64,000 bases of DNA from an uncultured Acidobacteriota bacterium (GTDB lineage Bacteria; Acidobacteriota; UBA6911), in contig CAYTYP010000013.1 of the NCBI GenBank assembly GCA_964441405.1, forward strand, positions 23,779 through 87,778, in the 5' to 3' direction. Below, piece after piece: positions 8,838 to 64,000 of the stretch. The position numbers and the translations under genes are program-made. A model generated the notes under the pieces. It worked only from the letters and a program-made list of their open reading frames with translations, was not told the DNA's origin and ran no database searches. Positions within the stretch are counted from its first letter, which is position 1, and every line of letters starts with the position of its first letter.

Positions 8838-8901
8838 ATAGGAGGCTTCCGATTGAAAACCTTCGGTTGGGATAGGGAATGCCGGAACAGGAAACGAGTG
8901 A

Positions 8902-9507: not shown

Positions 9508-9563
9508 GAATATAATTTTTTATATTCTCAAGTCCGGACCCGTTTTTTTAAGGAGTTGTTTTG

Positions 9564-10385: not shown

Positions 10386-10405
10386 GATGAAGACCGGAAT
10401 CCGAT

Positions 10406-10693
10406 CTATATGATCTCGCTGATTTGAAATTCCGGTTTGATATCGGAAAAATTAACCAGGTCGGCGGCAAGCTCCGGGTCATGGGCTTGCAATCCCTTCT
10501 CCATATCTTCCATGGTTTTAAAAACCAGGTGTCCTATAGCGATAAAAGGTGCGGTTCCAACGCCTTTGTTGACTTCGGTTTGGACCAGTCCATAAGGATC
10601 GAGTAATTTATGAACCAGCTTCATGTGTTGGTTCGTGTAATACTCGAAATTGAATTTTCCGCCTTGAGGATACATAACCGATACACGCATCAT
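10406..10693 (-). CDS. EthD/dimeric alpha-beta-barrel family small protein
   Basis: 95-aa translation MMRVSVMYPQGGKFNFEYYTNQHMKL. Tentative family call. Confidence 0.4.
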   Translation of the reverse strand: MMRVSVMYPQGGKFNFEYYTNQHMKLVHKLLDPYGLVQTEVNKGVGTAPFIAIGHLVFKTMEDMEKGLQAHDPELAADLVNFSDIKPEFQISEII

Positions 10694-46727: not shown

Positions 46728-46804
46728 AGCGCGCTCCAGGTCTTTCGTTGGATCAGCTCATTAAAAAACTGATGCATGAATGAAGAAATAAGTTCATGCC
46801 ATCT

Positions 46805-48697
46805 TCATTGCAGAACTCCTCCGAAATTATTTCTCATGCCGGCTAGAAGAGATTCCCAATCTCGAACGAGCTCTATTTCATATTCCCACCAGGGATCGTT
46901 TTGCGAAGTGTCGCCGGACGACAATGTAAATACCTTTTGAAGCCAATGCAATGAGGTTTCGAAATCGCCCCTGCTGCGCGCCAGATAACTCGCAGCCAAT
47001 AAGGGCGCTTGCGCCATTGGAAACAACGTTGCAGCGCGAGTGAAACATTCGCGGGCTTTCGTATGACGTTCAAGCGCGGCAAATTCATAACCCAGGAATA
47101 GGGAGGCGTAATATTTGAGTTTCGGATTCGTTAAGGTTGCATCCGCTTTCTGCAATTCGGCGATTGCCTTTTTATGATCGCCGAGAAGTCCTAAAACTCT
47201 CCCAAGTCTGAGATGCGCTTCGTTAAAACCCGGATCGGATTCTATGGAATTTGTCAGGAATATAAGCGCTGATTCCAATTCAGGTATTTTAGCGCCATAG
47301 AGATAATGTCTTCCAGGCGGCGGAATAGCGTTTTGGCTTTTCGGTGAAGCGTAACTTTCATGCAGCGCGCCGGCATAAAATAAAAGCTTCGCATCATTCG
47401 GGAAGATTTTCAGCGCTTGCTTAAGATTCTGATCTGCATAGATACGGTCGCGACAACTCAACATATGGGCGGTTGTGGAAATGTACCAAAGTCTCATCGT
47501 TTCGTCTTTTGACGGATTTGCAGGCAAGGAGTTGAGCAATAATCGAGCGAACTCCCAATGCTGCCCGCCGCTGGTCGCTATTCCAATGCCGTCATGGACC
47601 AAACCTATGTCTGAATCGGGGGCATCGTCCCTTCCGGTTTCCAGTCGCAAGACGGAAATATCCGTATGCAGTAAAACCCCACGTTTCAAAATCGGATTGA
47701 GATCCTTTGCGAGCTTCAGTTTGCCTTTAAAAGATTCTTTGAATTCAAGGTAGCAGTTTTTGAGCGAATTTGGGATCTCATGGCTGCGCGTCATTTTCTT
47801 CCCGGTCTGTTCAACGACAACGCTGATAATGGCTTCTATATCGCTTATGGGCCAGCTCCCGATTTTAACGGCGGCTTCGTCCATGGCGCCCGGCATGTGT
47901 TGGGCTGCTGATGTTTGCCAATCCTCTGCTTTTCGGATCCAGTAGTTGAGGTCTTCCACTTCGCTGAGTTTCTTTTCTTTCCCGAATAGTTCGATGAAGG
48001 AGGCGCTGACCTCTCCGGGCTTCCTCAGGAGTGAAGCTTTCCGATATTCGGAAATAGCTTTGTTTAAATCTCCCTCTCCGAGCCAGATCCCGCCTAATAG
48101 GGCATAGTTCTCCCCATTCCGGGGATCCAGCCGGATGGCTTTTTCCACTTCGGCAATCGCGGCTTTTGTATCCTTTTTTTTTGCAAGAGCGAGGCCAAGT
48201 TCTATGTGGTAATTGGCGTTTGAAGGTTCGAGCCGCGCAGCTTCCCTGTATTCGCCTAGGGCGGCATCCGGATTGCTCGACTGCAAAAAGCCCAGCATAT
48301 AATGCGATTCGGCGTCGTCAGGCTTCAGTCGAACAGATTCCTGATAGGCGGCCAATGAGTCTTTTCTGTTATTGAAGAGCCAGTGAACGAAACCCAGATT
48401 TTTCCATAATTCGACGTTGGCAGGCAGGCTTTTTATTGCTCGTCGGTATATTTTGACCGCCTCCTCATAATGTTTAAGAGCTTTGGTTTTGTCGCCGCTG
48501 CGTTGGTGCATATAGCCATTGATGATCCAGGCTTCGGCTTTTTGGGCTTCGGAACCGGCCTGCTGTAATTGGGCAATGGATTGAGCCGGATCGATCCACA
48601 GCAATGCATTTACAAACAGGCATGCCATGATTCGAGAGAGCCTGGATCCTTTACTGGGGGCGTTTGCATTGCCGGGGGCTTGAATGATCGAATGCAT
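46805..48697 (-). CDS. TPR-repeat protein
   Basis: Multiple 34-residue TPR-like repeats (W..G.....G....A...Y..A). Gene adjoins and is coupled to the neighbouring VWA genes. Confidence 0.7.
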   Translation of the reverse strand: MHSIIQAPGNANAPSKGSRLSRIMACLFVNALLWIDPAQSIAQLQQAGSEAQKAEAWIINGYMHQRSGDKTKALKHYEEAVKIYRRAIKSLPANVELWKNLGFVHWLFNNRKDSLAAYQESVRLKPDDAESHYMLGFLQSSNPDAALGEYREAARLEPSNANYHIELGLALAKKKDTKAAIAEVEKAIRLDPRNGENYALLGGIWLGEGDLNKAISEYRKASLLRKPGEVSASFIELFGKEKKLSEVEDLNYWIRKAEDWQTSAAQHMPGAMDEAAVKIGSWPISDIEAIISVVVEQTGKKMTRSHEIPNSLKNCYLEFKESFKGKLKLAKDLNPILKRGVLLHTDISVLRLETGRDDAPDSDIGLVHDGIGIATSGGQHWEFARLLLNSLPANPSKDETMRLWYISTTAHMLSCRDRIYADQNLKQALKIFPNDAKLLFYAGALHESYASPKSQNAIPPPGRHYLYGAKIPELESALIFLTNSIESDPGFNEAHLRLGRVLGLLGDHKKAIAELQKADATLTNPKLKYYASLFLGYEFAALERHTKARECFTRAATLFPMAQAPLLAASYLARSRGDFETSLHWLQKVFTLSSGDTSQNDPWWEYEIELVRDWESLLAGMRNNFGGVLQ

Positions 48698-48699
48698 TT

Positions 48700-49629
48700 T
48701 CAGTCTTTTTTTTCGTTGGCGGGGCCCGAGAAATAGCCGGACCGCGCCAGGATTTTTGCCTTGTGGTTTTTGACTCGGATTTTAAGTTGATGCCAGCCGT
48801 CACGCGATACGCCGGTTGGCGAGTAAGTCAAAAGATATCGATGGCGGAATTCTTCGAGAATGTCGAGAAAAACGCGACCAAGATCTTGTATTGATTCGAC
48901 TTCAAGTAAAGAACCGCCGGTTAATCCGCTGAGATCGTGTAGAAAGGTTTTGTTCGGAAGGCGGCGGGTGGTTACGGCATAGACGACGGCAGTGCCGCGA
49001 ATGGCGCTCTCCAGCACTGCCTTATCGGGCAGACTGCTTGAAGTGTCCAGTCCGTCGGTGAATACGATAACCATCGGCCGATCGCGTTTCGATTCGGCCA
49101 ATACCAGGCCTGCATAGCTTGCGTCGATAAGCGAGGATTCTCCCAATGGATTGGATTGCGCTTCACGGAGAGTTTTTTTCACATTATTAAAGTCCGCTGT
49201 GAGCGGAGAGCCAAGCTTTATTTGGCGGCTGAAAGTAATAAGCGCGGCCCGGTCCTCACTTTTAAGCCCATCCAGCAGCCCGGAACCGGCGGCTTTCAGG
49301 TTTTTGAGTTTTTCGCCGGCTACGCTGCCGCTCATATCAAAGACCAGAATGGCGCTGATGGGCATCTGCTCAAAGCTTAAAAAAGCGATTTCCTGAAGCT
49401 TGCCGTTATCGCGCACTTCGAAATCGGACGCTTTCAAATCCCGGATCGGCTTTCCATTTTCCGTTATCAGCATATCGATCCGCACCTCTTCAGTTTTAAC
49501 GGAAATGACTGATTGCGGTGCGGAGGATGGGGCTCCGGCTAGGATTGCAAATAAAAACACAATTGTTCCAAGGAGGCCCTGGACTCGTCCAAGTCGATGC
49601 TGAAAGGAAAAACAAAACGGCTTTTTCAT
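48700..49629 (-). CDS. secreted VWA-domain protein (VWFA-related acidobacterial family, short form)
   Basis: Signal peptide. KASDFEVRDNGKLQEIAFLSFE motif and a VWA-like core. Confidence 0.6.
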   Translation of the reverse strand: MKKPFCFSFQHRLGRVQGLLGTIVFLFAILAGAPSSAPQSVISVKTEEVRIDMLITENGKPIRDLKASDFEVRDNGKLQEIAFLSFEQMPISAILVFDMSGSVAGEKLKNLKAAGSGLLDGLKSEDRAALITFSRQIKLGSPLTADFNNVKKTLREAQSNPLGESSLIDASYAGLVLAESKRDRPMVIVFTDGLDTSSSLPDKAVLESAIRGTAVVYAVTTRRLPNKTFLHDLSGLTGGSLLEVESIQDLGRVFLDILEEFRHRYLLTYSPTGVSRDGWHQLKIRVKNHKAKILARSGYFSGPANEKKD

Positions 49630-49955: not shown

Positions 49956-50857
49956 ATGATCAGACCACACGGCAATTATGCCATTGGGATGGGGCCTCAT
50001 AAAAACTATCGGCAATACAAAGAAACGATCGACCGGCTCACGGACGCGATCGATCGGAAGCGTATCGTAGAGATGCGGTATTACTCAGCTTCCCGCAATG
50101 TTCCCGGTGGGTGCAGTCGATAGTGCGAGTCGTCTAATGACGCATGGGTTTGGGTAAAGCGCCTGTCGGCTGGTTGCACCGATAGCGCGTCCCGTTAGGG
50201 ACGCTATGGATTAAGCCCGGCACTTTAGTGCCGGGTTTATAGGAACCCCCAAAGTTTAGTCCCGTAGGGACGGCTGAAAATATATGGTTTGATTTCCGCC
50301 GTCCCGGGACGTGTGCGGAATTGGGCAAGACGCCGATGATGTTCCCAGGAGCGACTTATGGACACTCCATTTATTGACTTGTACTTCCGATTGCACCCGT
50401 TACCGGTCGAAGAGCCGTAGGTCCTTACCGGATATGGTATGCGGCTGGAGGGCTCTATTTGATCGGCTATTGCCATAAGCGCCGGGATGTCCGGATGTTT
50501 GCAATCGAAAGAATCCGATCATTGGCAGTGACGAACAATCCATGCCAGATGCCCCTGGGGTTCGACATCGAGGCGTATGTTCAGGACGCTTTGGTGGTAA
50601 TGCGCGGCAAGCCGATCGAGGTGGAACTCGTGTTCGAGCCCAAGGCGGCGGCATGGGTAAAAGATCGCGAGTGGCATGCCAGCCAGGTTCTTTTACCGGT
50701 GAAGGGCGGCCGTTTGAAGATGCGGTTGAGTGTGGCGGACACGCCTGAACTTGTCGGCTGGATCCTGAGTTTCGGCGCCGGTGTGCGCGTAGTTTCGCCT
50801 GCACGTCTCCGGGAGCGCGTTCTCGCCGAAGCAAAAAATATTTGTGAAAAAGAATAA
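49956..50857 (+). pseudogene. WYL-domain regulator gene (WYL + C-terminal WCX-like domain) interrupted by a miniature insertion
   Basis: Frame 0 reads ...IDRKRIVEMRYYSASRNVPG up to 50108. After the insertion, frame 2 resumes with VTGRRAVGPYRIWYAAGGLYLIGYCHKRRDVRMFAIERI (WYL motif) through a C-terminal domain to the stop at 50857. Confidence 0.65.
50109..50402. mobile_element. non-autonomous miniature insertion (MITE-like) with TIRs and 5-bp TSD
   Basis: Left end GGGTGCAGTCGATAG and right end CTTCCGATTGCACCC form an imperfect TIR. Flanking CCGGT is duplicated at 50104-50108 and 50403-50407. Interior holds GTCCC..GGGAC hairpins at 50187-50204, 50260-50272 and 50300-50311, and CCCGGCACTTTAGTGCCGGG at 50216-50235. 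Confidence 0.55.
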
Positions 50858-51668: not shown

Positions 51669-54545
51669 ATGGAAGATTTCAGCAATGATCGAATCAATAA
51701 TGAATTTCTTCGGAAGGCATTGAGGCTGCGAGAAAGTGAAACTCCATTTCCTTGGCAGGAAGAACTTCTGCGACGATTCCTGCGCGGATCTATACCCCCG
51801 GCACTCGATATTCCGACTGGACTGGGCAAAACGGCTGTAATGGCAATCTGGCTTATCGCCCGTGCTGGTGGAGCGGCGCTTCCAAGGCGGCTTGTTTATA
51901 TAGTGGATCGACGAGCTGTTGTTGATCAAGCCACCGATGTGGCCATTGCGCTCCACGATCTGGTCGATAGCAATGCTGACCTGAAGACAAGGCTCAGACT
52001 GGATGATAATCGCTCGCTTCCCATCTCAACGCTTCGTGGTAAACATGTTGATAACCATGAATGGCTTGAGGATCCGTCATCACCTGCAATAATCGTCGGA
52101 ACTGTGGACATGATTGGCTCACGGCTGCTTTTCGAAGGCTATGGCGTTTCTCGGAAAATGCGCCCCTATCATGCGGGACTTCTTGGCGCCGACGCGCTCA
52201 TTGTGCTCGACGAGGCTCATCTTGTGCCGCCATTCGAGATGCTTCTCAAGTTCATTGCCGAAAGAGATGCTGATTTTAGGCCAACCGATAAATTACTGGA
52301 TAAATTGGTGCCGCGATTCAGACTGCTTTCACTTTCAGCAACTGGCCGAACTTTAGGCGAAGACTCTATTAGACTGGAAAAAGCTGATCTAAACCACGAA
52401 GAATTGAAGAAGCGCCTCAATGCTGAAAAGTGCTTATTGCTGAAACTAAACAATGAAGATACTGACAGCGCTCAAACTGAAGCTAATATAAACCAGAAGG
52501 AAAAGTGGAGCATTTCGGAAGAATTGGCAAAGGAGGCCTGGAAGATCGTTGAGAATGGCACAAACAATACCAGAATCATTATTTTTTGTAACTGCCGTAA
52601 GGATGCGAGTGATACGAAGAGCGCCGTAGAGAAACTGGCAAAGGGCGATAAAAAGGCTGGCAAGGGGCCCGTCTTAATCCATTCAGAGCTTTTCGTCGGT
52701 GGACGCAGGATTTATGAGCGCGAAGAGGCCAAGATGCGCCTTGTAAAATTTGGTTTTATTGCAGGGAGTGAACAGACTCCTGATCGACCAACATTTCTCT
52801 TCGCGACATCAGCAGCAGAAGTTGGCGTGGATCTCGACGCCGATCATATGGTATGCGATCTTGTTGCCTGGGAGCGCATGGTTCAGCGGCTTGGTAGAGT
52901 CAATCGAAGAGGTAACTGCACTGCAAATGTTACCGTTGTCATGGAGCCAGAACCAAAACCTAAAAATAAAAAAGAAAAGGATGTAATAAATAAGAAGGCT
53001 AGCGGGAAGTCCTTGGAGGAGAAAGAAATCAAAATCTTAGATGCTTTTGAAGCTCGAGTCCGTGAGTGGAAAAACTATCAGAAGCCTTTCAGACATCTGC
53101 CGCTGATAAGTAATGGTGCATTTGATGCAAGCCCAGGAGCTCTTTCTAATCTAAAACAGCGTGCCGAATCAGACAAAGAGCTTGGGGAAATTTTGAGAAA
53201 TGCAACCACGCCCACCCCTCTGCGGCCTGTCCTCACTCGCGCACTTGTCGATGCATGGTCGATGACTTCTCTCAAGGAACACACCGGACGTCCAATGATC
53301 GATCCGTGGTTGCGTGGATGGAAAAAAGATGAGCTTCATACAAATATTGTATGGCGTGCGCACCTGCCATTACGGTCATCTTCAAAGCCGCCGGCAAAGA
53401 AAGAGATCGAGCAATTCTTTGAGGCTGCTCCACCACATGCCAGTGAAGTATTAGAGGAGGAAACGTATCGAGTCGTCCAGTGGCTTGAAAAGCGGGCTGT
53501 TGCGGTGCTGAAGAATGCAACTCATAACCCGAGCACGACTGTACGACCACTCCTACCCTCCTCCGATGAAGTGGTAGCTTTCATTCTCTCTCGTTCTGGT
53601 GATTTTCAGGACCACCTTAGATTCAAGGATCTCATAACTACCGATAATGGCGATTCTCAAAGCAAGCAACAAATGCGGCTCCGCCAGACGCTGGGCGGAG
53701 CAATTCTTGTGGTCGATTCAATTCTTGGTGGCTTAAAAGACGGGTTGCTTGATGAAAAGGAAGATTCTTTGCCCAAAACCACCGATGATGGTCAAGAGTG
53801 GCTCGGGGAGCATGTCGCTGGCTTCCGTATCCGTAGTGTTCGTGCTGATGAATCCCTCGGATCAGATCCATCGTGGCGAGAACGATTTCGCTTTGCAACC
53901 AAACTCACGGAGGAGGGAGAACCAAGGCTATGGCTCATCGTCGAAAAGTGGCGGCATGAAGCAACAACCGAAGATGATCGATCCTCGTCTCATCCGCAAA
54001 TTTTGGAGGAGCATCAATCATGGGCAGAGGATCGGGCCCGTAATCTTGCACAAAAACTTCAATTGGATGAGCCTTATCTCAAAATGCTTGCAATCGTGGC
54101 TCGTCTGCACGACGAAGGCAAGCGCTTTCGCCGGTGGCAGCGAGGCTTCAATGCATCTAAAGATGGGATATATGCGAAAACAAAGGGGCCGATAAACTAC
54201 GCCTTATTAGATGGCTACCGACATGAGTTAGGTTCTCTTCTTATCGCTGAGAATGACGAAAAGATTAATTCTCTTTCTGAGGAATTACGCGAGCTCGCAC
54301 TACATCTAATCGCTGCCCATCATGGTTTTGCGCGCCCCGTCATTGGCACTCACGGCTGCGAGGATGCCCCGCCATCCGTTGTGGAAACGCGGACTTGTGA
54401 AGTGGCGCTGCGTTTTTCACGCCTTCAGCGGCGTTGGGGCCCATGGGGACTTGCATGGTGGGAAACGCTCCTTCGGGCGGTTGACCAGCAGGCTTCTCGC
54501 GAAAATGATGCCGCTGAATTGGTGATACAAAAGGAGGAGTTCTGA
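51669..54545 (+). CDS. cas3: Cas3 helicase-nuclease with C-terminal HD domain (type I-G/I-U architecture)
   Basis: N-terminal SF2 helicase motifs (DIPTGLGKTAV Walker A, LIVLDEAHL motif II) and C-terminal HD-nuclease motifs (ARLHDEGKRFRRWQ, IAAHHGFARP). 958 aa. GGAGG RBS. Confidence 0.85.
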   Translation: MEDFSNDRINNEFLRKALRLRESETPFPWQEELLRRFLRGSIPPALDIPTGLGKTAVMAIWLIARAGGAALPRRLVYIVDRRAVVDQATDVAIALHDLVDSNADLKTRLRLDDNRSLPISTLRGKHVDNHEWLEDPSSPAIIVGTVDMIGSRLLFEGYGVSRKMRPYHAGLLGADALIVLDEAHLVPPFEMLLKFIAERDADFRPTDKLLDKLVPRFRLLSLSATGRTLGEDSIRLEKADLNHEELKKRLNAEKCLLLKLNNEDTDSAQTEANINQKEKWSISEELAKEAWKIVENGTNNTRIIIFCNCRKDASDTKSAVEKLAKGDKKAGKGPVLIHSELFVGGRRIYEREEAKMRLVKFGFIAGSEQTPDRPTFLFATSAAEVGVDLDADHMVCDLVAWERMVQRLGRVNRRGNCTANVTVVMEPEPKPKNKKEKDVINKKASGKSLEEKEIKILDAFEARVREWKNYQKPFRHLPLISNGAFDASPGALSNLKQRAESDKELGEILRNATTPTPLRPVLTRALVDAWSMTSLKEHTGRPMIDPWLRGWKKDELHTNIVWRAHLPLRSSSKPPAKKEIEQFFEAAPPHASEVLEEETYRVVQWLEKRAVAVLKNATHNPSTTVRPLLPSSDEVVAFILSRSGDFQDHLRFKDLITTDNGDSQSKQQMRLRQTLGGAILVVDSILGGLKDGLLDEKEDSLPKTTDDGQEWLGEHVAGFRIRSVRADESLGSDPSWRERFRFATKLTEEGEPRLWLIVEKWRHEATTEDDRSSSHPQILEEHQSWAEDRARNLAQKLQLDEPYLKMLAIVARLHDEGKRFRRWQRGFNASKDGIYAKTKGPINYALLDGYRHELGSLLIAENDEKINSLSEELRELALHLIAAHHGFARPVIGTHGCEDAPPSVVETRTCEVALRFSRLQRRWGPWGLAWWETLLRAVDQQASRENDAAELVIQKEEF

Positions 54546-55462
54546 TGACAGAAGCATCCATTCCGGTTGATTTATTCAATCCCGGGCAGGTGTTCGCCTG
54601 CCTTGGTTTTCTTGAGGCGGCCGAAATGCTGCTCGGCAATGCGGAGGGCGGCTTCGATTGGAGCATTCATAAGGATATTTTCTTTCGCCTCTGCGCTAAG
54701 GGTGCGAAAAATCCTTTTTCAGTCGTTCTACAGTTCCTTACAACCGCAGATATCATTCCACATAGTTTTACTCAGTGTACTTTGAATTCGATGTTTGACA
54801 GTAATGGAGCCCCTATCTCTGACATCCAAATAGATTGTTCGGGCACATTCCCTTGTCCGGATGTGGACACAATGACATTACCAATCCACCTTGTTGGATT
54901 ACTGAACGATGAAAAATATTTGATTAATTTTAGCCACTGGGCTGATGGATCGAGTCGCAATACTTTTAAACTCTATTCCGGCAACCGATCCGCAGCTGAT
55001 ATTTCGCGCGCCATGCTATTGGGAACTCAAAAGAAGTCAAAGAAGAAACAAGGCGAGATGGAAACGTACGGCCTTCGATCCTTATGGAAGGAGCATCGAT
55101 CAGAGCTGGAAAAAAACCCATTCAATGTTCTAACACCGCTTGGGGGGAGTTTTAATTTTGATCCAAGAGGTGCATGGACAGGAATAGACGCCGGGTATTC
55201 TCCAAATGATCAGAAACATGCCATGGCAGCCTCGCCAGTTGTCGAGATCCTGGCGGCTCTCGGGCTTGAGCACGCACGGCCGGATGAATTCAAGACTCGC
55301 CAGGTGCGATATGCAGCCTGGAACTCAATAATTCCGCCTTTTCTCGCGAGAGCTGCTCTATCCGGTGCGCTCTTAAACATTCCGCTAAGGAAGTTTCAAT
55401 TCACCCTTTTTCTTTCGGGGAAGAATAAGGTCATCACATTTGCAAAGGAGGAAATACAATGA
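54545..55462 (+). CDS. Cascade-like effector subunit, 305 aa, in the large-subunit (Cas8u) position; family unassigned
   Basis: ATGA overlap with the cas3 stop, so translationally coupled. No motif could be assigned by eye. Confidence 0.45.
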   Translation: MTEASIPVDLFNPGQVFACLGFLEAAEMLLGNAEGGFDWSIHKDIFFRLCAKGAKNPFSVVLQFLTTADIIPHSFTQCTLNSMFDSNGAPISDIQIDCSGTFPCPDVDTMTLPIHLVGLLNDEKYLINFSHWADGSSRNTFKLYSGNRSAADISRAMLLGTQKKSKKKQGEMETYGLRSLWKEHRSELEKNPFNVLTPLGGSFNFDPRGAWTGIDAGYSPNDQKHAMAASPVVEILAALGLEHARPDEFKTRQVRYAAWNSIIPPFLARAALSGALLNIPLRKFQFTLFLSGKNKVITFAKEEIQ

Positions 55463-56697
55463 CGGAAGTAACGGAAGTAATCACTGAGGAGGTTTTGAAT
55501 AATTGGGCAACGGATGAAAAGGGCCCTGTGGCCCTTCACATGAAACAGAGACTCTTGCCTGTAGAAGTGTTAGATGAAGAGACTGGCATAATATTCCCTC
55601 CCACGTATGCCGACATCGGATACAACATCGATACGCTTTTTGACGGCACGAGGGTTGCTACTATCGACAGTATCGGTTCGCAAGCCAACCGACTTGAGCC
55701 GAACTTCAAATCCAATTCACAGAACAAGGAGGAGTGGCTAGTTCCGCAAATTGAGATCGTACTGCGTTCGGAACCGTGCGGAGAATGTGAGGCGTGCAAG
55801 GAAGTCAAACGCGTAGGTGGAAAGAGCAAAGCAAGCGGCTGTATAAAGCCAAAGCAGGTGAAACGTTCGATCTTCGATCTTGCGCACCGCGCTGCCGATG
55901 CCGTTGTCCAGTCTTCCCCTGGACTTAATGGGCTCATCAAAGATGCATTCAAGGCGCTTCAAGAAGGCGATGCCCTGCCTCTTTGTTCATTAGCACCGAC
56001 ATCGCTGGTTTTCGGTGTGTGGGATTCGCGCGGAGGAAGCGGCGAAAAGCGCCCTCGCTTGGTTCGCTCTATTATTCGGGCCTGGGACGTAGAACCGCTG
56101 CATGCTGCAGCACAGTTTAATTCTGTCTGGAAAGCTCTCGATGAAGAGCAAAAAGAGGATTTGAAAAAGGAGGCGACGGCAAAGAAGGTCGAGTTGTCGG
56201 AGAAAGGCTTCGCGGATGCTCCGGCGGTTTTTCGCAAAACCAAGATTCAGCTATATCGCGAGGGTACGCCGAATCCAGAAGCCCGTGTTCTTGGTGGCAT
56301 TTTCGTCAAGGGGCGAATTGAGCGCGACGTTACCGTGAATCTTGTTGCGCTCCGTGGCCTTTACGGTAAATATGACATGACAAATGCAATTCGCAAATAT
56401 CTTCTCGGTCTTTCTCTACTTGCCGCGACGGCAGATATCGACTTGTTCCTTCGTGAGGGCTGCCACCTGCGCTATGCGGCAGAAGATAATTGGTTCGAAG
56501 TGCCTCGCAGGGGCAACCCAACGCTATTGAAATTCCCTACTGATTCGAAATTCTTAATGAATTATATAATGGAAGCTTCAAAAGGATTCAGATCAGCATG
56601 GCCGGAGAAGTTGGAATATGTATTTAATTTAAGTGAGGCAAAAAGGCTGCTTGCGAAAAATACAAATGATCATGAAGAAGCAGTTGGAGGTGCATGA
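55459..56697 (+). CDS. Cascade-like effector subunit, 412 aa, probable Cas7 (Csb1-like)
   Basis: ATGA overlap with the upstream gene. The size and position match the Cas7 slot. Glycine-containing loop LGGIFVKGRIERDV. Confidence 0.45.
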   Translation: MTEVTEVITEEVLNNWATDEKGPVALHMKQRLLPVEVLDEETGIIFPPTYADIGYNIDTLFDGTRVATIDSIGSQANRLEPNFKSNSQNKEEWLVPQIEIVLRSEPCGECEACKEVKRVGGKSKASGCIKPKQVKRSIFDLAHRAADAVVQSSPGLNGLIKDAFKALQEGDALPLCSLAPTSLVFGVWDSRGGSGEKRPRLVRSIIRAWDVEPLHAAAQFNSVWKALDEEQKEDLKKEATAKKVELSEKGFADAPAVFRKTKIQLYREGTPNPEARVLGGIFVKGRIERDVTVNLVALRGLYGKYDMTNAIRKYLLGLSLLAATADIDLFLREGCHLRYAAEDNWFEVPRRGNPTLLKFPTDSKFLMNYIMEASKGFRSAWPEKLEYVFNLSEAKRLLAKNTNDHEEAVGGA

Positions 56698-59105
56698 TGT
56701 CCAGTGCACTTGCAATCCATGTGCGCTTTCATGATGGGCGCTATCATGGCGACAGCGACTGGCCTCCGTGTCCCGCCCGGCTTTTTCAGGCACTTGTCAG
56801 CGGCGCCGGGCTCAGTGGCCCGATCAGCGAGAAGTTTTCTAATGCGCTCAAATGGCTGGAGAGCATTCCGCCCCCACTGATCGGTGCGCCGCAAGCGCAG
56901 CGCGGCCAGCGCGTCATGTTTTATATGCCGAACAATGATATGGATATAGTGGGCGGTGATCCGCTACGAATTGCGGAAATTCGCACCGCAAAAAAGTATT
57001 TCCACCCCTATTTATTCGATTTAAATATTCCGTTCCTCTTCCTCTGGCAAAATATAACTGATGAACACACCCATTATGCCAACGAGATTTGCGAGGCTGC
57101 GTACCATCTTTATCAACTCGGTCGTGGCATCGATATGGCATGGGCGTGGGCCGATTTGCTCAACATGGCTAAGGTCGATGAACTACTTGCGAGCTATCCT
57201 GGGCAAATACATCGTCCGTCAACCGGAATCGGCGAAAATCATACAAATACACTTTTATGTCCGCATCCGGGGTCATTGGAGTCCATTTGCAAACGCTACC
57301 AGGCCTATAGTCACAGGTTTATGATTGCGAGGAAAGGCAAGACGGTAAAGCAAACTTTCCAGAAGGCGCCACAAGCGAGCTTCCGGTCCGTTTCATACGA
57401 CAATCCGCCAACACGCTATATTTATGAGCTTCGCAGGTCACCGGATCCGTTGTTGTTTTTTCCGTGGCCATTATCAGAAGTATCGAAGCTTATTGTTTGC
57501 TTGCGGGATGGAGCAGTGGATCGGCTCAAGACGGCGTTGCCTGACCAAGCTGCTCAAATTGATCGTGTGCTTGTAGGGCGAAAGTCTGATGGCACAAATG
57601 CCGGTTCGACAGCCGAACGGGTAAGAATTATTCCTCTACCATCTGTCGGACATCCTCACGCTGATCATGCAATTCGGCGGATTCTGGTTGAAGTGCCCGC
57701 TGCCTGTCCGCTGAGAGCAGATGACGTATCATGGGCATTTTCGGCACTTGTTGAGCCTGTTGATATCGCAACAGGCGAAATATATCCACTCGTTCTGATA
57801 TCCACTGCTGATGAAAATATACTGCGCCACTTTGGCATGGGAGAAAACTCCGAAGCTTCAGTATGGCGCACGATTACGCCAATTGCTGTTCCAGAGGTAG
57901 CCGGCAGGAGAAGAATCGAGCCAACCATACAGCTCGCCCAAGCCAAATCGGGAGCGGAACGTGTTTACGAGCAACATATCGCCGCAGCGTCCATAATCCA
58001 GGCGTTGAGACATGCGGAGATTCGTGAGCAACCCGTGGCAGTCAAGGTTCAGCGAGAACCTTTTGAGGGTAATGGCGAACGGGTGGAAGCCTTTGCTAAC
58101 AGAACAAGATTTTATTCCCGGAGCCTCTGGCATGCCGAGATCACCTTTTTAAAGCCTCTCTCGGGTCCTCTGGTGGTCGGTGACGGTCGCTTCTTCGGCC
58201 TGGGTGTTATGGTTCCAAACGCTTTGAAAAGGACGCATGTTGCCCAATTTGTACTGGATTCTACGGTGTTGCCGCAAATCACTGAGGCGCTGCCGGTGGC
58301 GGAGTCTGCCCGCCGGATATTGATGGGCATAGGCGGCCGTATGTTCTCCGCTCCTGATGGATCGCGGGGGCGTTCTGATGTTTTTTCAGGTAAAAATGAA
58401 AATGGAAGACCGTTGGAAGGGCATGGCCATGCTTATTACCTTCCAACGGATGAGGACCAGGATGGCTATATTGACCATTTGACGATCATTGCAGTTGGTG
58501 GGTTCAACGAGCAGGATCTCAAGGTCCTGGATGCGTTGCGAGAATTAAAAAGCAAAGAGCGGGAAGCATCCGGCCATCCGCTTCGAACTTTACTGATAGG
58601 TATAGGAAGGTTGGACGAATACCGCCCCTACTTGATGCAGCCATCAAGAATATGGCGTTCTGCAACACCATTCATCGCTTCACGCTTTCTTAAAAAGCGA
58701 GGCACAAAACGCGATCCTGTTGAATTCTGGAATAATCCACATGATTTTCTCATTGCTGTTTTGAGGGAGGAAATGGCTAGGTTTATTGCCCGGCGGTTTG
58801 AATTGAAGGATCTAAATCCGGATAAAATCAAGATCAGGCCACTTTTAGATGAAAACAGTGTTTTTCGAATCGGCCGGCAAAATCTTCGACCGATCCAGTT
58901 TAAAAGGTTTCGTCAGAAGAAGGGGGATGATGGAGGCAATCGTCCGGCAGGATCATTTGAAATTGATTTTGGCCGCGATGTTAGCGGTCCTATCGCTCTC
59001 GGCCACTCCTCCCATTTCGGCTTGGGACTGTTTGTTCCGGTAAATGAGCAAAATGAATCTGGCGATGGAACTGTTATTAATGATCCTATTATTGGTATGA
59101 TATGA
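56694..59105 (+). CDS. enlarged Cas5-Cas6 fusion (Csb2-like), 803 aa
   Basis: N-terminus RFHDGRYHGDSDWPPCPARLFQALV resembles the Cas5u/Csb2 family N-terminal signature. Two RAMP-type glycine-rich loops: LVVGDGRFFGLGVMVP mid-protein and ALGHSSHFGLGLFVP near the C-terminus. ATGATG overlap with the upstream gene. Confidence 0.55.
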   Translation: MMSSALAIHVRFHDGRYHGDSDWPPCPARLFQALVSGAGLSGPISEKFSNALKWLESIPPPLIGAPQAQRGQRVMFYMPNNDMDIVGGDPLRIAEIRTAKKYFHPYLFDLNIPFLFLWQNITDEHTHYANEICEAAYHLYQLGRGIDMAWAWADLLNMAKVDELLASYPGQIHRPSTGIGENHTNTLLCPHPGSLESICKRYQAYSHRFMIARKGKTVKQTFQKAPQASFRSVSYDNPPTRYIYELRRSPDPLLFFPWPLSEVSKLIVCLRDGAVDRLKTALPDQAAQIDRVLVGRKSDGTNAGSTAERVRIIPLPSVGHPHADHAIRRILVEVPAACPLRADDVSWAFSALVEPVDIATGEIYPLVLISTADENILRHFGMGENSEASVWRTITPIAVPEVAGRRRIEPTIQLAQAKSGAERVYEQHIAAASIIQALRHAEIREQPVAVKVQREPFEGNGERVEAFANRTRFYSRSLWHAEITFLKPLSGPLVVGDGRFFGLGVMVPNALKRTHVAQFVLDSTVLPQITEALPVAESARRILMGIGGRMFSAPDGSRGRSDVFSGKNENGRPLEGHGHAYYLPTDEDQDGYIDHLTIIAVGGFNEQDLKVLDALRELKSKEREASGHPLRTLLIGIGRLDEYRPYLMQPSRIWRSATPFIASRFLKKRGTKRDPVEFWNNPHDFLIAVLREEMARFIARRFELKDLNPDKIKIRPLLDENSVFRIGRQNLRPIQFKRFRQKKGDDGGNRPAGSFEIDFGRDVSGPIALGHSSHFGLGLFVPVNEQNESGDGTVINDPIIGMI

Positions 59106-59124: not shown

Positions 59125-59481
59125 TTGTCCGGAACGATAATGAAAGAGATTAAAGAGCTTCAAGAAAAAGAACGGATGGCCCTTGAAGAACTGAAATTGA
59201 GGATCAGCTCGGAATTGCCGGAACCATCTTGCCGGCTCACTCTTTTCGGATCAAAGGCAAGAGGCGATGCTGAGCCCGATTCCGATATTGATGTTCTGGT
59301 TGAATTGGACGCACTCCATGTTTCTCCGGTTTATAAGCGGAAACTGCGGCGCATCGCAGGAGAGTTGTCCATAAAATTCCGCGTTTTGCTTTGTCTCCTC
59401 ATCATTGATCGGAGCACGCGTGAAGAGAAAGGCGATTACGCCATTTTGCAGAATATTCGTGAAGAGGGAATTTCCGTATGA
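59125..59481 (+). CDS. minimal nucleotidyltransferase (MNT/MntA-type antitoxin)
   Basis: LFGSKARGDAEPDSDIDVLV (GSxxxG...DxD) motif. 118 aa. Confidence 0.75.
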   Translation: MSGTIMKEIKELQEKERMALEELKLRISSELPEPSCRLTLFGSKARGDAEPDSDIDVLVELDALHVSPVYKRKLRRIAGELSIKFRVLLCLLIIDRSTREEKGDYAILQNIREEGISV

Positions 59482-59876
59482 GTGGGAAGGAAATTCGCGA
59501 ATTGCTCCAAAAAGCCGACCGAAGCCTTAAGGCTGCTGAAATATTACTGCAACAAGGCTATTGTGACTTCTCCATATCACGCGCCTACTATGCAATGTTT
59601 TATGCCGCGCAGGCTATTCTTCTTACCAAAGATGTTCGTCGAGTAAAACATTCCGGTATTATCGCCGCATTTAATGAATTGTTTGTGCATTCAGGTCAAT
59701 TGCCCCATGATCTCTTTATTTCATTGCGCGATGCTTTTGAGGATCGAGCCGAAGGCGACTACGGTTTAAATGTAATTTCTGAAGAACAAGCTGTCTCGTG
59801 TCTTTTGGAAGCACGTAAATTTGTTGCTGAAATAGACAAGAAATTGGGAGCATGGTCGGAATCCCATGACCATTAG
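59478..59876 (+). CDS. HEPN-domain protein (HepT-type toxin partner)
   Basis: ATGA overlap with the MNT gene. SRAYYAMFYAAQAILL HEPN core helix. 132 aa. Confidence 0.65.
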   Translation: MSGKEIRELLQKADRSLKAAEILLQQGYCDFSISRAYYAMFYAAQAILLTKDVRRVKHSGIIAAFNELFVHSGQLPHDLFISLRDAFEDRAEGDYGLNVISEEQAVSCLLEARKFVAEIDKKLGAWSESHDH

Positions 59877-59906: not shown

Positions 59907-60410
59907 TCATTTCATTCTTAATTTTATATCGATCAGGATTGTTGCATCGGCAAGGTGTTGTGTTTCGGAGTAGACGACTATGATGCCTTTGATTTTGCCG
60001 GAGGATTTACCACCGGTGAATTGCTGCTTGAGGTCCTCTGATAGAGCGCTGGACAGGAGCAGTTCTTTTGCTTTATCGGTGAAATAAAAAGTCGTCCGGA
60101 AAGAACCTTTAATAACCGAAAGCCAGAAGATGGTTTTCTTCTTTAGAGTGACTTTCAAAAGCCAGCCTTTCACGTCACGGTAATAGCGCCACTCTCTTGT
60201 AAAATCTGGATGATCGGCGTCGAGATGTTTGAAAAGCGAATTCCATAGCGGTTTCGTTTTCCCGATATGCGCGAAAATAATCTCATCCGTAGGGCGTTCG
60301 TTCGGGTTGGATAAAGCAATCGGTTCCATAAACCATCTCCGGTCGGAAAATTCAAATAATACACTGATTCCATGAGCTATAAAAAAAAGAATCTTTGAAT
60401 ATGAGCGCAC
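59907..60410 (-). CDS. hypothetical protein embedded in the cas locus (opposite strand)
   Basis: 167-aa ORF (the likely start at MEPIALSNPNERP gives about 140 aa). No family recognised by eye. Confidence 0.4.
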   Translation of the reverse strand: MRSYSKILFFIAHGISVLFEFSDRRWFMEPIALSNPNERPTDEIIFAHIGKTKPLWNSLFKHLDADHPDFTREWRYYRDVKGWLLKVTLKKKTIFWLSVIKGSFRTTFYFTDKAKELLLSSALSEDLKQQFTGGKSSGKIKGIIVVYSETQHLADATILIDIKLRMK

Positions 60411-60496
60411 TATTCAATGGGAACCTCTACGCTTTCTTCCAACCAATGATACAGTTGATGAATGAAAGATGAAGTGCGGCCGATATGTAATATCGT

Positions 60497-60787
60497 ATGC
60501 GTACGAGCTATCTGGTTTGCTACGATATTGCCGACGACAAAAGGCTGCGAAGCGTATTCAAAAAAATGCGCAGCTACGGCGATCACCTTCAGTTCTCCGT
60601 TTTCGAGTGCCAGTTGTCTCCGGCCGATCTCGTACGTTGCCGCACGGAACTGGATGCGATCATCAATCATAGGGAAGACCAGGTGCTTTTTGTGAATATC
60701 GGGCCGTCCGAGGGGCGAGGCGATCGGGTGATTACCGCCTTGGGCAAGCCCTACATCCATATAGACAGCCCTTGCATCGTGGTGTGA
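60497..60787 (+). CDS. cas2: Cas2
   Basis: 96 aa. YLVCYDIADDKRLRSVFKKMRSYGDHLQFSVFEC is the Cas2 N-terminal signature. Confidence 0.85.
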   Translation: MRTSYLVCYDIADDKRLRSVFKKMRSYGDHLQFSVFECQLSPADLVRCRTELDAIINHREDQVLFVNIGPSEGRGDRVITALGKPYIHIDSPCIVV

Positions 60788-62562
60788 AAGTGGAAACGAC
60801 TCAGGAAATTTCTAAGGAAGAAGGCAGAGAGCCTGTCCCGGAATACCTGCCCGCCCGTATGCTGAATGAGTTTGTCTATTGTCCGCGGCTTTTTTTCTAT
60901 GAATGGGTAGATGGAGTTTTCGAGGAAAGCGCGGATACGCTTGAAGGAAAAGCCCAGCATAAGAGGGTGGATGAGACGGTTTCATCCCTCCCTGCTCCCG
61001 AAGAACTTGAAGATGAGTCCATGCGTTCGCGGTCCGTAAGCATGTCCAGCGACCGCTATGGAGTGATTGCCCGTATGGACCTGGTGGAGGTTGAAAACGG
61101 AACCGTCACGCCCGTGGATTATAAGCATGGCGATCCCCGGGAGACGAAAACAGGCATCGAACTCTGGCCTGCGGACAAATTTCAATTGGCGACTCAGGGA
61201 TTGATTCTTAAAGACAACGGATACCGGTGCGATGAAGGATTAGTCTATTACTTCAAGACAAAACAAAGAGTACGCGTTCAATTAGATGAATTCCTGATTG
61301 CGGAAACTCTTCAGTTGATCAAGGATGCGCGGACAACAGCCGCCTCCGGACAGATCCCGACTCCATTGACTGATTCGCCAAAATGCCAGGGGTGTTCTCT
61401 TGTAGGCATATGCCTGCCGGATGAAACTTCGGAACTTTCGGCCGCGAGGACGGTTGAGGAGGCCTCCCAGCTTTCATTTTTTGAAGAAAATGAAACGGTA
61501 AAACATGTTTCGTCTTCCGTTCGAAGGCTGATCACGCCCAGGGACGATCTGCGCCCTGTTTATATCAATACACATGGCATGCGCATTGGTAAATCAGGCG
61601 AAGTCCTGCAGATTCGCGACAAGGATGCACTGAAACAGGAAATCAGGATTCATGAGATGTCGCAACTCAATATTATGGGAAATGTCCAGGTGTCCACCCA
61701 GGCGATACAAAGCCTTTGCCAGGAAGACATTCCTATCTGTTATTTTTCTCAGGGCGGCTGGTTCTACGGCATTACGGCCGGAATGAATGTCAAAAATGTC
61801 TTTTTAAGAAAAATTCAATATCGTCTTTCCGATGAAACCTGGTTCGCGCTGTCGTTCGCCAGACAACTCATCTCCGGAAAAATCAAAAATCAACGGACAA
61901 TGCTGCAAAGAAATCATATCGAGCCGAAAGCCATTACTTTACAGCAGATGAAAACGATGGCCGAAAGAGCCGAGCAGGCAGGAAGCCTTGAAGAATTGCT
62001 GGGGATCGAAGGGAACGCGGCAAGATTATATTTCGGCGATTTTAACGGCATGATCAAAGTGGAAGAGGGAGACGAAACCGGCAAACAGTTTGCATTCGAT
62101 TTTTCAAAGAGAAACCGGCGCCCTCCGAGGGATGCGGTGAACGCCATGCTTTCTTATTGCTATAGCCTTCTGGCCAAGGACTGCACGATCGCTTGTTATG
62201 CCGTCGGCTTTGATCCGATGATGGGCTTTTACCATCAACCCCGCTTTGGGAGACCATCCCTTGCTCTTGACCTGATGGAACCGTTTCGCCCCCTTATCGG
62301 CGATTCCGTGACGCTCAGCGCTATCAATAATCGCATGGTGCAGAGTAGGGATTTTGTGGAAGCAGGGCCTTCGGTTTCACTTACACCCTCAGGGCGAAAA
62401 GGTCTGTTGCATGCTTATGAATTACGCATGGATGCACTTGTCACTCACCCGATCTTTGATTATCGCGTAAGTTATCGTAGACTGTTGGAGATTCAGGCAA
62501 GGCTGCTTGCTCGATATTTGAATAATGAGATTGCCGAATATCCGGTATTTGTAACTCGATGA
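60772..62562 (+). CDS. cas1: Cas4-Cas1 fusion protein
   Basis: N-terminal Cas4 RecB-nuclease/Fe-S part (LNEFVYCPRLFFYEW ... CQGCSLVGIC). C-terminal Cas1 motifs (LGIEGNAARLYF, VNAMLSYCYSLL, ALDLMEPFRPLIGD). The exact start is ambiguous (TTG 60772, GTG 60784/60790 or ATG 60859). Confidence 0.85.
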   Translation: MHRGVKVETTQEISKEEGREPVPEYLPARMLNEFVYCPRLFFYEWVDGVFEESADTLEGKAQHKRVDETVSSLPAPEELEDESMRSRSVSMSSDRYGVIARMDLVEVENGTVTPVDYKHGDPRETKTGIELWPADKFQLATQGLILKDNGYRCDEGLVYYFKTKQRVRVQLDEFLIAETLQLIKDARTTAASGQIPTPLTDSPKCQGCSLVGICLPDETSELSAARTVEEASQLSFFEENETVKHVSSSVRRLITPRDDLRPVYINTHGMRIGKSGEVLQIRDKDALKQEIRIHEMSQLNIMGNVQVSTQAIQSLCQEDIPICYFSQGGWFYGITAGMNVKNVFLRKIQYRLSDETWFALSFARQLISGKIKNQRTMLQRNHIEPKAITLQQMKTMAERAEQAGSLEELLGIEGNAARLYFGDFNGMIKVEEGDETGKQFAFDFSKRNRRPPRDAVNAMLSYCYSLLAKDCTIACYAVGFDPMMGFYHQPRFGRPSLALDLMEPFRPLIGDSVTLSAINNRMVQSRDFVEAGPSVSLTPSGRKGLLHAYELRMDALVTHPIFDYRVSYRRLLEIQARLLARYLNNEIAEYPVFVTR

Positions 62563-62747
62563 TTGATGCTGCGAGCGGTTAGGTAATGAAGAAAAAGCAG
62601 GAGGCGTTCGCATCCGGGTTTAGCTATAAAAACAAAGCACTTACGTTGATCGGCGATTCTTACTAGAAATATATTATGTTGTTATTAGGCAAGCGTTCGA
62701 AAGGCACAACCCAGATCTTTGAAAATATGAGTTTTATGCGAGAAGCT
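62563..62747 (+). promoter_or_regulatory. CRISPR leader
   Basis: 185-bp AT-rich non-coding segment between the cas4-cas1 stop and the first repeat. Confidence 0.6.
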
Positions 62748-64000
62748 ATTTCCGCGATTGAAAGATCGCGGCCCCATTGAAGCGACCAAACCATAGCGCA
62801 CCCGGCAACCAGGATCGAAATTTCCGCGATTGAAAGATCGCGGCCCCATTGAAGCGTGCAAATTTGCACAAGGTCGGTTCTGGCGCCCTGATTTCCGCGA
62901 TTGAAAGATCGCGGCCCCATTGAAGCTCTGCGGGATGCACGAATACCAGCGAGAGCCGCCCGATTTCCGCGATTGAAAGATCGCGGCCCCATTGAAGCCA
63001 GGTTATAGGGTAGAGGTCTATCCAATTCGGAGCTATTTCCGCGATTGAAAGATCGCGGCCCCATTGAAGCACCATTTCATCCTGGCCGTGCGTGATGTTT
63101 TCAGGCATATTTCCGCGATTGAAAGATCGCGGCCCCATTGAAGCTTGATGTGTCATTTCGCGTCTCCTTTTTCGATTTTGATTTCCGCGATTGAAAGATC
63201 GCGGCCCCATTGAAGCTGATATAACGGCAACGTCAATTGGTTGTGTTCAACCACATCCAGATTTCCGCGATTGAAAGATCGCGGCCCCATTGAAGCATTG
63301 GAACGGATATCACAAAGACCATGCTCGATAGATTTCCGCGATTGAAAGATCGCGGCCCCATTGAAGCATGTAGGCCCGGACGGTGAAGGGCGTTCCAGGC
63401 GTGCATTTCCGCGATTGAAAGATCGCGGCCCCATTGAAGCTTTGGAATTTTCGGTGGATTTTGATTCAATGGGTCGGATTTCCGCGATTGAAAGATCGCG
63501 GCCCCATTGAAGCTCGTAGTGCTGTCGTTCCTGTCTCTTGTGCTGATCAATTTCCGCGATTGAAAGATCGCGGCCCCATTGAAGCATTCCGTCAATCGTT
63601 CCTGTTGGCGTCTCGGTGTATGATTTCCGCGATTGAAAGATCGCGGCCCCATTGAAGCTCCCCGCTACCATTCGCGGACATTTTCATCCGTTAATTTCCG
63701 CGATTGAAAGATCGCGGCCCCATTGAAGCCGCCCGTAACAAGCGGGTCGGTCTGCGCCTTGATTAATTTCCGCGATTGAAAGATCGCGGCCCCATTGAAG
63801 CCCGTGTGGATTTCCAGGGGCGGCTCCTCATCTTCCCAATTTCCGCGATTGAAAGATCGCGGCCCCATTGAAGCTATAAAACTGACGGCTTTGTACAAGC
63901 AGGCGTTGCGTGAATTTCCGCGATTGAAAGATCGCGGCCCCATTGAAGCACTGCTCCGATAATCGGTTTAATACTCTCTACTTCCAATTTCCGCGATTGA
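62748..64000 (+). CRISPR. CRISPR array, 36-bp repeat ATTTCCGCGATTGAAAGATCGCGGCCCCATTGAAGC; 17 complete repeats plus a truncated 18th at the window edge
   Basis: Repeats start at 62748, 62820, 62891, 62963, 63035, 63109, 63181, 63261, 63332, 63405, 63478, 63550, 63623, 63694, 63766, 63839, 63914 and 63987 (truncated). Spacers are 35-39 nt, with one of 44 nt. The repeat has an internal 7-bp palindrome CCGCGAT/ATCGCGG. Confidence 0.95.

Follow-up and report, generated by a model that had tools for sequence, protein, structure and literature searches.

A type I-G CRISPR-Cas locus with a minimal Cas8g2 and a three-RAMP-domain Csb2 in an uncultured Acidobacteriota bacterium

A 64,000-nt stretch of contig CAYTYP010000013.1 from an uncultured Acidobacteriota bacterium (the whole of it is called the window here, and coordinates refer to it) contains cas3 followed by three effector genes of a CRISPR-Cas system, in which the protein in the Cas8 position has only 305 aa, while Csb2 has 803 aa. 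Has a part of the large subunit moved into the long Csb2? The original prediction made from this DNA had suggested such a transfer, naming a Cas8 C-terminal or Cas11-like region as an example of what might have moved. Our analysis mainly deflates this idea: the two proteins are members of well-populated known families, and the Cas8/Cas11 transfer is unsupported. The region is likely the effector module of a type I-G (formerly I-U) CRISPR-Cas system that is complete, seems to be functional, and belongs to the Cas8g2 variety, with a Csb2 of three RAMP domains.

The effector operon and its long Csb2

The four open reading frames (ORFs) were found at the positions given in the original prediction. 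The products of all four scored above the curated NCBIfam cut-offs for type I-G Cas families; therefore, they are not chance ORFs. The effector genes and the domains of Csb2 are as follows:

51669–54545, plus strand: cas3g, 958 aa (TIGR02621, E 1.5e-174, 583 bits against a cut-off of 400; Pfam Cas3-like_C_2, DEAD, and Cas3_HD)
54545–55462, plus strand: cas8g2 (GSU0052/Csx14/Cas8u2 family), 305 aa, minimal large subunit (TIGR04106, E 1.7e-46)
55459–56697, plus strand: cas7g/csb1, backbone subunit, 412 aa (PF09617, E 1.2e-27; TIGR02570, E 4.4e-24, 85 bits against a cut-off of 38)
56694–59105, plus strand: csb2, 803 aa, domains N, M, and D3 (TIGR02165, E 2.2e-99, 333.9 bits against a cut-off of 45)
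56694–57443, plus strand: Csb2 domain N, aa 1–250, Cas5-like
57444–58217, plus strand: Csb2 domain M, aa 251–508, divergent Cas6-like RAMP ending in G-rich loop 1 (GDGRFFGLG)
58218–59102, plus strand: Csb2 domain D3, aa 509–803, Cas6 endonuclease domain with G-rich loop 2 (GHSSHFGLGLF)

Cas3g carried the helicase at the N-terminus and the HD nuclease at the C-terminus (HD domain, aa 785–915). The genes overlapped by ATGA (cas8g2/cas7) and ATGATG (cas7/csb2), as had been predicted for all junctions; the cas3/cas8g2 junction, however, was TGATG with a 1-nt overlap. A GGAGG-like Shine–Dalgarno sequence preceded each start in the effector operon, and the view of an intact, tightly coupled operon was upheld. 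Profile searches identified a complete type I-G system. Along the locus lie cas3g, cas8g2, cas7g/csb1, csb2, an MNT/HEPN gene pair, cas2, and cas4-cas1, followed by a putative leader and an array with at least 17 repeats. The type I-G signature gene csb2 was thus accompanied by Cas7g/Csb1, a Cas4–Cas1 fusion, Cas2, and an adjacent array. We failed to find a further RAMP ORF or a Cas11 ORF within 51.6–62.6 kb, and no Rfam RNA families were present across 49.5–64 kb.

The 803-aa protein, correctly recognized as Csb2 in the original prediction, consists of three RAMP domains: Cas5-like N, divergent Cas6-like M, and D3 of the Cas6 endonuclease type. The N-terminal signature VRFHDGRYHGDSDWPPCPARLFQALV (aa 10–35) and the family signature GRYH..WPPSP were present. 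The two G-rich loops quoted earlier, VVGDGRFFGLGVMVP (aa 494–508) and GHSSHFGLGLFVP (aa 770–782, ending 21 aa before the C-terminus), were confirmed, and both belong to RAMP domains. Residues 5–508 filled the entire 492-position TIGR02165 model, and D3 alone matched positions 252–492 of the same model (E 1.3e-19) and positions 224–448 of 449 in the PADLOC model Cas56g PDLC01778 (E 2e-54). Relative to the 492-position model, the extra length is ~295 aa rather than the ~250 aa estimated previously.

Profiles were compared by hhalign with 30 two-domain Csb2 proteins as the canonical reference. D3 matched the canonical Cas6 half with a probability of 100% (E 1.9e-45), and M matched it with a probability of 96.6% (E 6e-10); M and D3 matched each other with 95%, N matched the canonical N half with 97%, and cross-domain controls gave less than 1%. 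Direct BLASTP of aa 201–508 against aa 509–803 returned the glycine-loop match only (E 2e-5); therefore, profile methods were needed to reveal the duplication. A sequence search detected no similarity between Csb2 and PDB chains.

Csb2 has been described in published work as a two-domain "Cas5 and Cas6" fusion with "duplicated RAMP domains", and we found no description of a third Csb2 domain or of stand-alone Cas6 modules in type I-G in the searchable literature, which is incomplete. The two-domain architecture of the Csb2 proteins of Thioalkalivibrio sulfidiphilus (Tsu) and Bifidobacterium animalis does not apply to the window protein, which has three domains. In Tsu Csb2, the domain boundary lies at R260; the window Csb2 adds the 258-aa M between the Cas5-like and Cas6 domains. 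In the B. animalis type I-G system (Csb1, Csb2, Csb3; Chhetry & Anand 2022, bioRxiv 10.1101/2022.08.19.504415), the 545-aa Csb2 consists of a Cas5-like N half (aa 1–250) and a catalytic Cas6-like C half (aa 251–545), and the large-subunit slot is occupied by Csb3, not Cas8g2. Cas6b (4Z7K), type I-B Cas6 (8FCJ_B), Csf5 (6H9H), and Cas5e (5U07_N) are separate single-function polypeptides, whereas one Cas5-like and two Cas6-like modules form a single chain in the window.

The protein belongs to a long-form Csb2 subfamily and is not a non-member of the family. Among its best 120 homologues, 81 were 697–803 aa long with a query cover of 72–99% (most 82–99%), and 38 were 500–569 aa long, covering N+M only. 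An alignment of this kind with Csb2 proteins of similar size had been named beforehand as a refutation of the transfer. The long-form proteins are already named Csb2 by database curators, and the three-domain form is a variant of Csb2. Could the 803-aa ORF instead be an artefact, in which csb2 and a downstream cas6-like gene were joined by a sequencing or assembly error? The two parts are separate adjacent genes in three related loci (L008, L013, and L018); however, the uninterrupted ORF was also present in an independent assembly (L004 from SRR8925802, 802–803 aa), in the 81 long homologues, which come from many sources, and in 12 named genomes, so that an artefact is scarcely conceivable.

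The minimal large subunit

By its sequence, the 305-aa protein is a typical representative of Cas8g2, a known family of minimal large subunits. It scored 159.1 bits against TIGR04106 (cut-off 125), with aa 4–293 aligned to model positions 2–270 of 282. Among 5.8 billion proteins searched, 3154 homologues were retrieved; the best 120 were 287–338 aa long, mostly ~300–325, and bore source names such as Csx14, Csb3, and "type I-U Cas8c". The full-length match and the uniformly small size of the homologues indicate that the ORF is not a frameshift fragment, a possibility that the original prediction had raised against itself. The protein is compact, as had been noted, but not unusually small, as its size is normal for the family. 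The gene lay between cas3g and cas7g, and its position was identical in all 22 related loci. In the Geobacter sulfurreducens I-U/I-G system GSU0051–GSU0054 (Makarova et al. 2011, PMC3150331; Almendros et al. 2019, PMC6547450), which shares with the window the Cas8g2 (GSU0052) family and the gene order cas3, cas8, cas7, csb2, the GSU0052/Csx14 protein was called a "deteriorated Cas8" in 2011 (PMC3150331) and later Cas8u2 (PMC6547450). The searchable literature, which is incomplete, yielded neither a paper that employs the name Cas8g2 nor any work on the biochemistry or structure of this branch.

A Cas8-like fold was found for the window protein. Its AlphaFold2 (AF2) model was mixed alpha/beta throughout, without a helical bundle; the C-terminal alpha-helical domain described for GSU0052 by Makarova et al. 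2011 was thus not observed in it. The model calls this description into question but does not affect the family membership defined by hidden Markov models. Only 199 residues aligned to the 649-aa chain of Csx17, the large subunit of the Tsu type I-G Cascade. Since hhalign gave no signal between the Cas8g2 and Csx17 profiles (probability 0.2%), the Cas8 relationship is drawn from the fold, and a PDB sequence search with Cas8g2 retrieved nothing relevant.

The Tsu complex (Cas8g1/Csx17 + Cas7g + Csb2 + Cas3; Shangguan et al. 2022, PMC9638904; PDB 8ANE, 8B2X) shares with the window the subtype and the cas3g, cas7g, and cas4-cas1 families. Its large subunit, however, is a Csx17 of 649 aa or more with a Cas11-like helical C-terminal domain, which the 305-aa Cas8g2 does not have. 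If large-subunit function (the Cas8 C-terminal or Cas11-like helical region) had physically moved into Csb2, both the small Cas8 and the long Csb2 would be explained, and the absence of the helical domain from the alpha/beta model of Cas8g2, together with the co-occurrence of long Csb2 with Cas8g2 and not with Csx17, agrees with this. Yet both "extra" segments of Csb2 are RAMP domains homologous to Cas6: D3 matched the Cas6 half of Csb2, and M is a divergent Cas6-like domain. The secondary structure of these segments was beta–alpha–beta, resembling an RNA recognition motif, with terminal glycine loops and no Cas11-like or Cas8 C-terminal-like helical bundle. Moreover, the Cas8g2 and Csx17 profiles show no sequence relationship by which a moved segment could be traced. 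On this domain-level fold evidence, the physical transfer is close to refuted and must be regarded as highly improbable. An internal translation product similar to Cas11, named earlier as a point to check, was rejected, as neither Cas8g2 nor Csb2 contained a helical-bundle segment.

The Cas6-like domains and related loci

D3 is predicted, from its sequence, to be the crRNA (CRISPR RNA) endonuclease and hairpin anchor of the system. In a search of 1.84 billion representative proteins, its nearest relatives were the C-halves (~aa 250–540) of 510–577-aa Csb2 proteins, with 44–52% identity. Every residue invariant in the 30 canonical Csb2 proteins was retained in D3: GHxHA..YLP (H577, H579) and H-F-G-L-G. 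The Tsu Csb2 sequence reads ...GPLALGFGCHYGLGLFAPSHDSE, including GFGCH(503)YGLGLF (Makarova 2011 alignment, Additional file 1, PMC3150331), which places H503 in the glycine loop; the isolated Tsu C-domain cleaves the repeat, and the H503A substitution abolishes cleavage (PMC9638904). The loop GPIALGHSSHFGLGLFVP of D3 places His774 (codon 59013–59015) as the counterpart of H503, so that the catalytic histidine of the homologous Tsu domain is present in the C-terminal glycine loop of D3. It lies 29 residues from the end of the protein; the catalytic H520 of the B. animalis Csb2 is ~25 residues from its C-terminus.

The repeat AUUUCCGCGAUUGAAAGAUCGCGGCCCCAUUGAAGC folds as an 8-bp hairpin (-12.1 kcal/mol, z -3.2) and has the layout of the Tsu substrate GUCAUCCGCGGCAUUUAGCCGCGGCCUCAUUGAAGC: a stem, 4 nt, and an identical 8-nt handle AUUGAAGC. 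The homology of D3, H774, the invariant residues, and this repeat layout together underlie the prediction. D3 would recognize the repeat hairpin and cut the pre-crRNA 4 nt 3' of the stem via His774, leaving the 8-nt 5' handle. Cleavage would be metal-independent, and D3 would remain bound to the 3' hairpin; both points are drawn from homology and the identical repeat architecture, the retention by analogy with Thioalkalivibrio Csb2, for which it was shown experimentally. Cas7g would then polymerize along the spacer, and Cas8g2 with Cas3g would complete the complex. CRISPR RNA-guided DNA interference with a TTN protospacer adjacent motif was shown for the G. sulfurreducens and Tsu type I-G systems only (PMC6547450, PMC9638904).

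Repeats at all loci compared form one family, ...CCGCG-loop-CGCGG-CCNC-ATTGAAGC, and do not co-vary with the type of Cas6 module; the repeat comparison therefore says nothing on which domain reads the repeat. The arrays of L006, L011, L013, L021, L022, L024, and the window keep this pattern in different phyla, while the distal stem and the loop vary with compensatory substitutions. These substitutions provide natural covariation support for the hairpin, the fixed 4-nt spacer, and the 8-nt handle.

In M, residues R296, R309, and F500 occupy the positions of the three conserved histidines of Cas6-type domains. Across the 120 homologues, R296 and R309 were present in 120/120 each and F500 in 118/120; G496, G498, R499, G502, and G504 were invariant, as were many further Arg and Gly residues. 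The mean pairwise identity was highest for M (0.67), followed by N (0.60) and D3 (0.52). M is thus probably an extra, highly conserved Cas6-like paralogue under constraint, with a non-canonical role; most likely, it would be a RAMP module that binds RNA or protein without cleaving and is peculiar to the Cas8g2 clade of the window. The C-domain of GSU0054 resembles M in having R and F at two of the His positions. As judged from the related locus L109, GSU0054-type Csb2 appears to consist of N and an M-like domain with no third domain, whereas the window clade adds D3.

Csb2 architectures were tallied in 20 named genome loci with a close Cas8g2 and in loci from an exact look-up, some of which are cut by contig ends. 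Within the Cas8g2 clade, N+M+D3 were fused in 13 loci, including those of Lamprocystis purpurea and Thioalkalivibrio sp. ALJT. In four loci, one of them frameshifted, N+M was followed directly downstream by a separate 280–320-aa Cas6-like gene (L008, L013, and L018 have csb2 and the Cas6-like part as separate adjacent genes), and in two loci, the separate Cas6-like gene was upstream of cas3. In the metagenome loci L033 and L034, an N+M csb2 was followed by an entire canonical csb2. The extra Cas6 module was absent from one, apparently disrupted, locus and was kept in 21/22 informative loci. A 289-aa ORF upstream of cas3 in L016 was considered as a stand-alone module and rejected, as it is of low complexity and matches nothing.

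The added Cas6 modules belong to at least four lineages: a Tsu-like one (window, L018, L034), a "GGGLF-loop" type found in most ~730-aa forms, a Rhodothermus/L017-like one, and a GSU0054-like one. In a neighbour-joining tree of N+M, calculated without support values, fused-A, fused-G, and unfused forms were interspersed, and the window was placed among unfused relatives. The mean identity of the window D3 to other long-form D3 domains was 26%, and that of M was 58%. The tandem csb2 genes of L034 (6638–8182, N+M, 515 aa; 8699–10423, a canonical two-domain Csb2 of 575 aa, whose class usually accompanies Csx17), also seen in L033, may be an intermediate toward stand-alone and fused Cas6 modules. 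In L017 (3–5487) and L023 (3–2920), a second type I-G module (cas7, canonical two-domain csb2, cas3) lies directly upstream of the Cas8g2-type operon, so that two type I-G variants stand side by side.

Metagenome loci with canonical two-domain Csb2 carried an adjacent Csx17/Cas8g1 match within the DNA recovered in 54 of 80 cases, and Csx17 was confirmed by TIGR04113 in four of these 54 loci (E down to 2e-214). Neither M nor Cas8g2 was found in the 80 recovered canonical-Csb2 loci, except L033 and L034. None of the Cas8g2-clade loci had Csx17, and all of them had the N+M core. Hence, in the sampled clade, minimal Cas8g2 co-occurs with Csb2 enlarged by one RAMP domain, and Csx17/Cas8g1 with two-domain Csb2; this association is real, but it is a correlation and not homology.

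The correlation raises the possibility of functional compensation, in which M, as a repurposed Cas6-like RAMP, would do the job of the extra ~400 residues of Csx17 and would have co-evolved with the minimal Cas8g2. As candidate tasks, M might cap the 5' handle, form a bridge along the belly of the Cas7 filament, or recruit Cas3. Besides the partition of Csx17 and M among the loci, the strong conservation of M with its many invariant Arg residues agrees with this. In the Tsu structure, the sole one available for type I-G, Csb2 is invisible, the 5' handle is uncapped by any subunit, and the role of the Cas5-like N-domain was left undefined (PMC9638904). The argument is purely correlative, however; GSU-like Cas8g2 systems work with only N and an M-like domain, and the M-type may be the original Cas6 domain of that lineage rather than a compensating novelty. 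We therefore put compensation forward as a doubtful possibility. Equally tentative is a scheme joining these observations, in which, in one large clade of Cas8g2-type I-G systems, an ancestral Cas6-like M would have lost its conserved histidines and would be kept under strong constraint as a non-nucleolytic RAMP module in a structural role that is normally the large subunit's (5'-handle capping or Cas11-like bridging). An interchangeable Cas6 module would have taken over the processing of crRNA; its recruitment would have occurred repeatedly, in the form of a complete second csb2, a stand-alone gene, or a C-terminal fusion.

Several observations weigh against the assignment of cleavage to D3 and of a non-cleaving role to M. 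Among 82 long-form D3 domains, the residue equivalent to H774 is His in 41 and Tyr in 39. M retains the conserved GHxHAD motif (H320 and H322 in at least 90% of sequences), which could be catalytic. In E. coli, the cas3-cas8u2-cas7-cas5/6 set of G. sulfurreducens is enough for interference (PMC6547450). The GSU0054-like clade, for which L109 serves as a stand-in relative (its csb2 is split by a frameshift), combines Cas8g2 (TIGR04106, E 5.5e-55) with a two-domain Csb2, the C-domain of which matches the M profile over its full length; cas2 is directly 3' of csb2 in this locus. The association of Cas8g2 with an enlarged Csb2 is therefore not universal. Since GSU-type systems suffice in E. coli and L109 has this architecture, M-type domains presumably can support crRNA maturation in some systems, and the M-type is probably the ancestral Cas6 domain of the Cas8g2 lineage and can be competent. 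In addition, the locus sets came from pattern-based scans biased to relatives of the queries, and the Csb2 model had a predicted template modelling score (pTM) of 0.70, its inter-domain geometry being a prediction.

On another reading of these data, crRNA would be cut by M, as the ancestral Cas6 domain of the GSU0054 lineage, and D3 would be redundant or auxiliary, for example, serving another array or being a spare after horizontal acquisition. The sufficiency of two-domain Csb2 in E. coli, the L109 architecture, the GHxHAD motif, the free swapping of D3 lineages, and Tyr instead of His in the glycine loop of half of them would all be accounted for. Nevertheless, M of the window clade has lost all three Cas6-type His positions, whereas the GSU-type C-domain keeps the first one, at the "GH" position where M has R296; the extra Cas6 module persists in 21/22 informative loci despite repeated rearrangement, which is hard to explain if it is redundant; and no residue that is invariant in the experimentally active class is missing from the window D3. 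We consider this reading unlikely and retain D3 as the predicted endonuclease.

The GSU0054-like loci L109 (4892–11892) and L108 (1629–10028) are on long contigs, and several of their cas genes, including csb2, are in pieces. These broken genes are probably long-read frameshift errors, and many database entries for "stand-alone Csb2" of 150–390 aa may be such artefacts.

Surroundings of the effector genes and implications

The following features were located downstream of csb2:

59125–59481, plus strand: MNT-type nucleotidyltransferase, MntA-like antitoxin (PF01909, E 2.5e-9; NF047752 only below cut-off)
59478–59876, plus strand: HEPN-domain protein, MNT partner (PF05168, E 7e-18)
59907–60410, minus strand: DUF3788 gene, between the HEPN gene and cas2 (PF12663, E 3.7e-26)
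60497–60787, plus strand: cas2 (PF09827, E 7e-21; tblastn with the L001 Cas2, E 1.5e-22)
60772–62562, plus strand: cas4g-cas1g fusion (NF049935, E 1e-227, 757 bits against a cut-off of 560)
62563–62747, plus strand: AT-rich sequence from cas1 to the first repeat, read from the sequence; putative leader by its position
62748–63949, plus strand: CRISPR array of 17 repeats of 36 nt (ATTTCCGCGATTGAAAGATCGCGGCCCCATTGAAGC), reaching the window end

The array probably extends past the end of the window. The MNT and HEPN genes overlap by 4 nt and sit inside the cas operon between csb2 and cas2. Such genes also adjoin cas genes in a related type I-G locus (L003:341–1052, L003:8623–9099, and L003:12034–12372), which suggests a recurrent association of MNT/HEPN with type I-G. 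The cas2 gene precedes cas4-cas1, with which it overlaps; in L001, by contrast, it lies 3' of cas4-cas1. A 116-aa ORF (60410–60760, minus strand), antisense across cas2, is almost certainly spurious.

Upstream of cas3, a split remnant of a WYL–WCX regulator was found in two ORFs (49956–50123 and 50459–50857). The first corresponds to WYL positions 1–26 and the second to WYL positions 47–69 and the complete WCX; ~335 nt lie between the pieces, and the helix-turn-helix domain is absent. The regulator gene is disrupted or frameshifted, and no obvious inserted repeat element or RNA family was found around it by repeat search and Rfam. Just upstream of the CRISPR locus (44832–49629, minus strand), a 631-aa protein without a Pfam match, a 630-aa TPR-repeat protein, and a 309-aa VWA-domain protein were encoded. 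This trio looks like a BatA/BatB-like cluster and is unrelated to the Csb2 finding.

Among type I effectors, type I-G is understood least, and the large subunit of its Cas8g2 branch does not reach half the usual size. Csb2 of this branch either contains a second Cas6-like module or recruits one, and the catalytic histidines have been lost from one of these two modules. A practical point for annotation is that 280–320-aa "Csb2-like" genes standing alone beside type I-G operons probably encode Cas6 modules rather than being fragments of genes. The correlation between Cas8g2 and an enlarged, modular Csb2 is experimentally tractable, and the three-domain Csb2 offers a tractable way to ask how a minimal Cascade splits RNA processing, RNA capping, and large-subunit functions. 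If the tentative scheme for M is true, a domain derived from Cas6 would stand in for part of Cas8/Cas11 in this Cascade.

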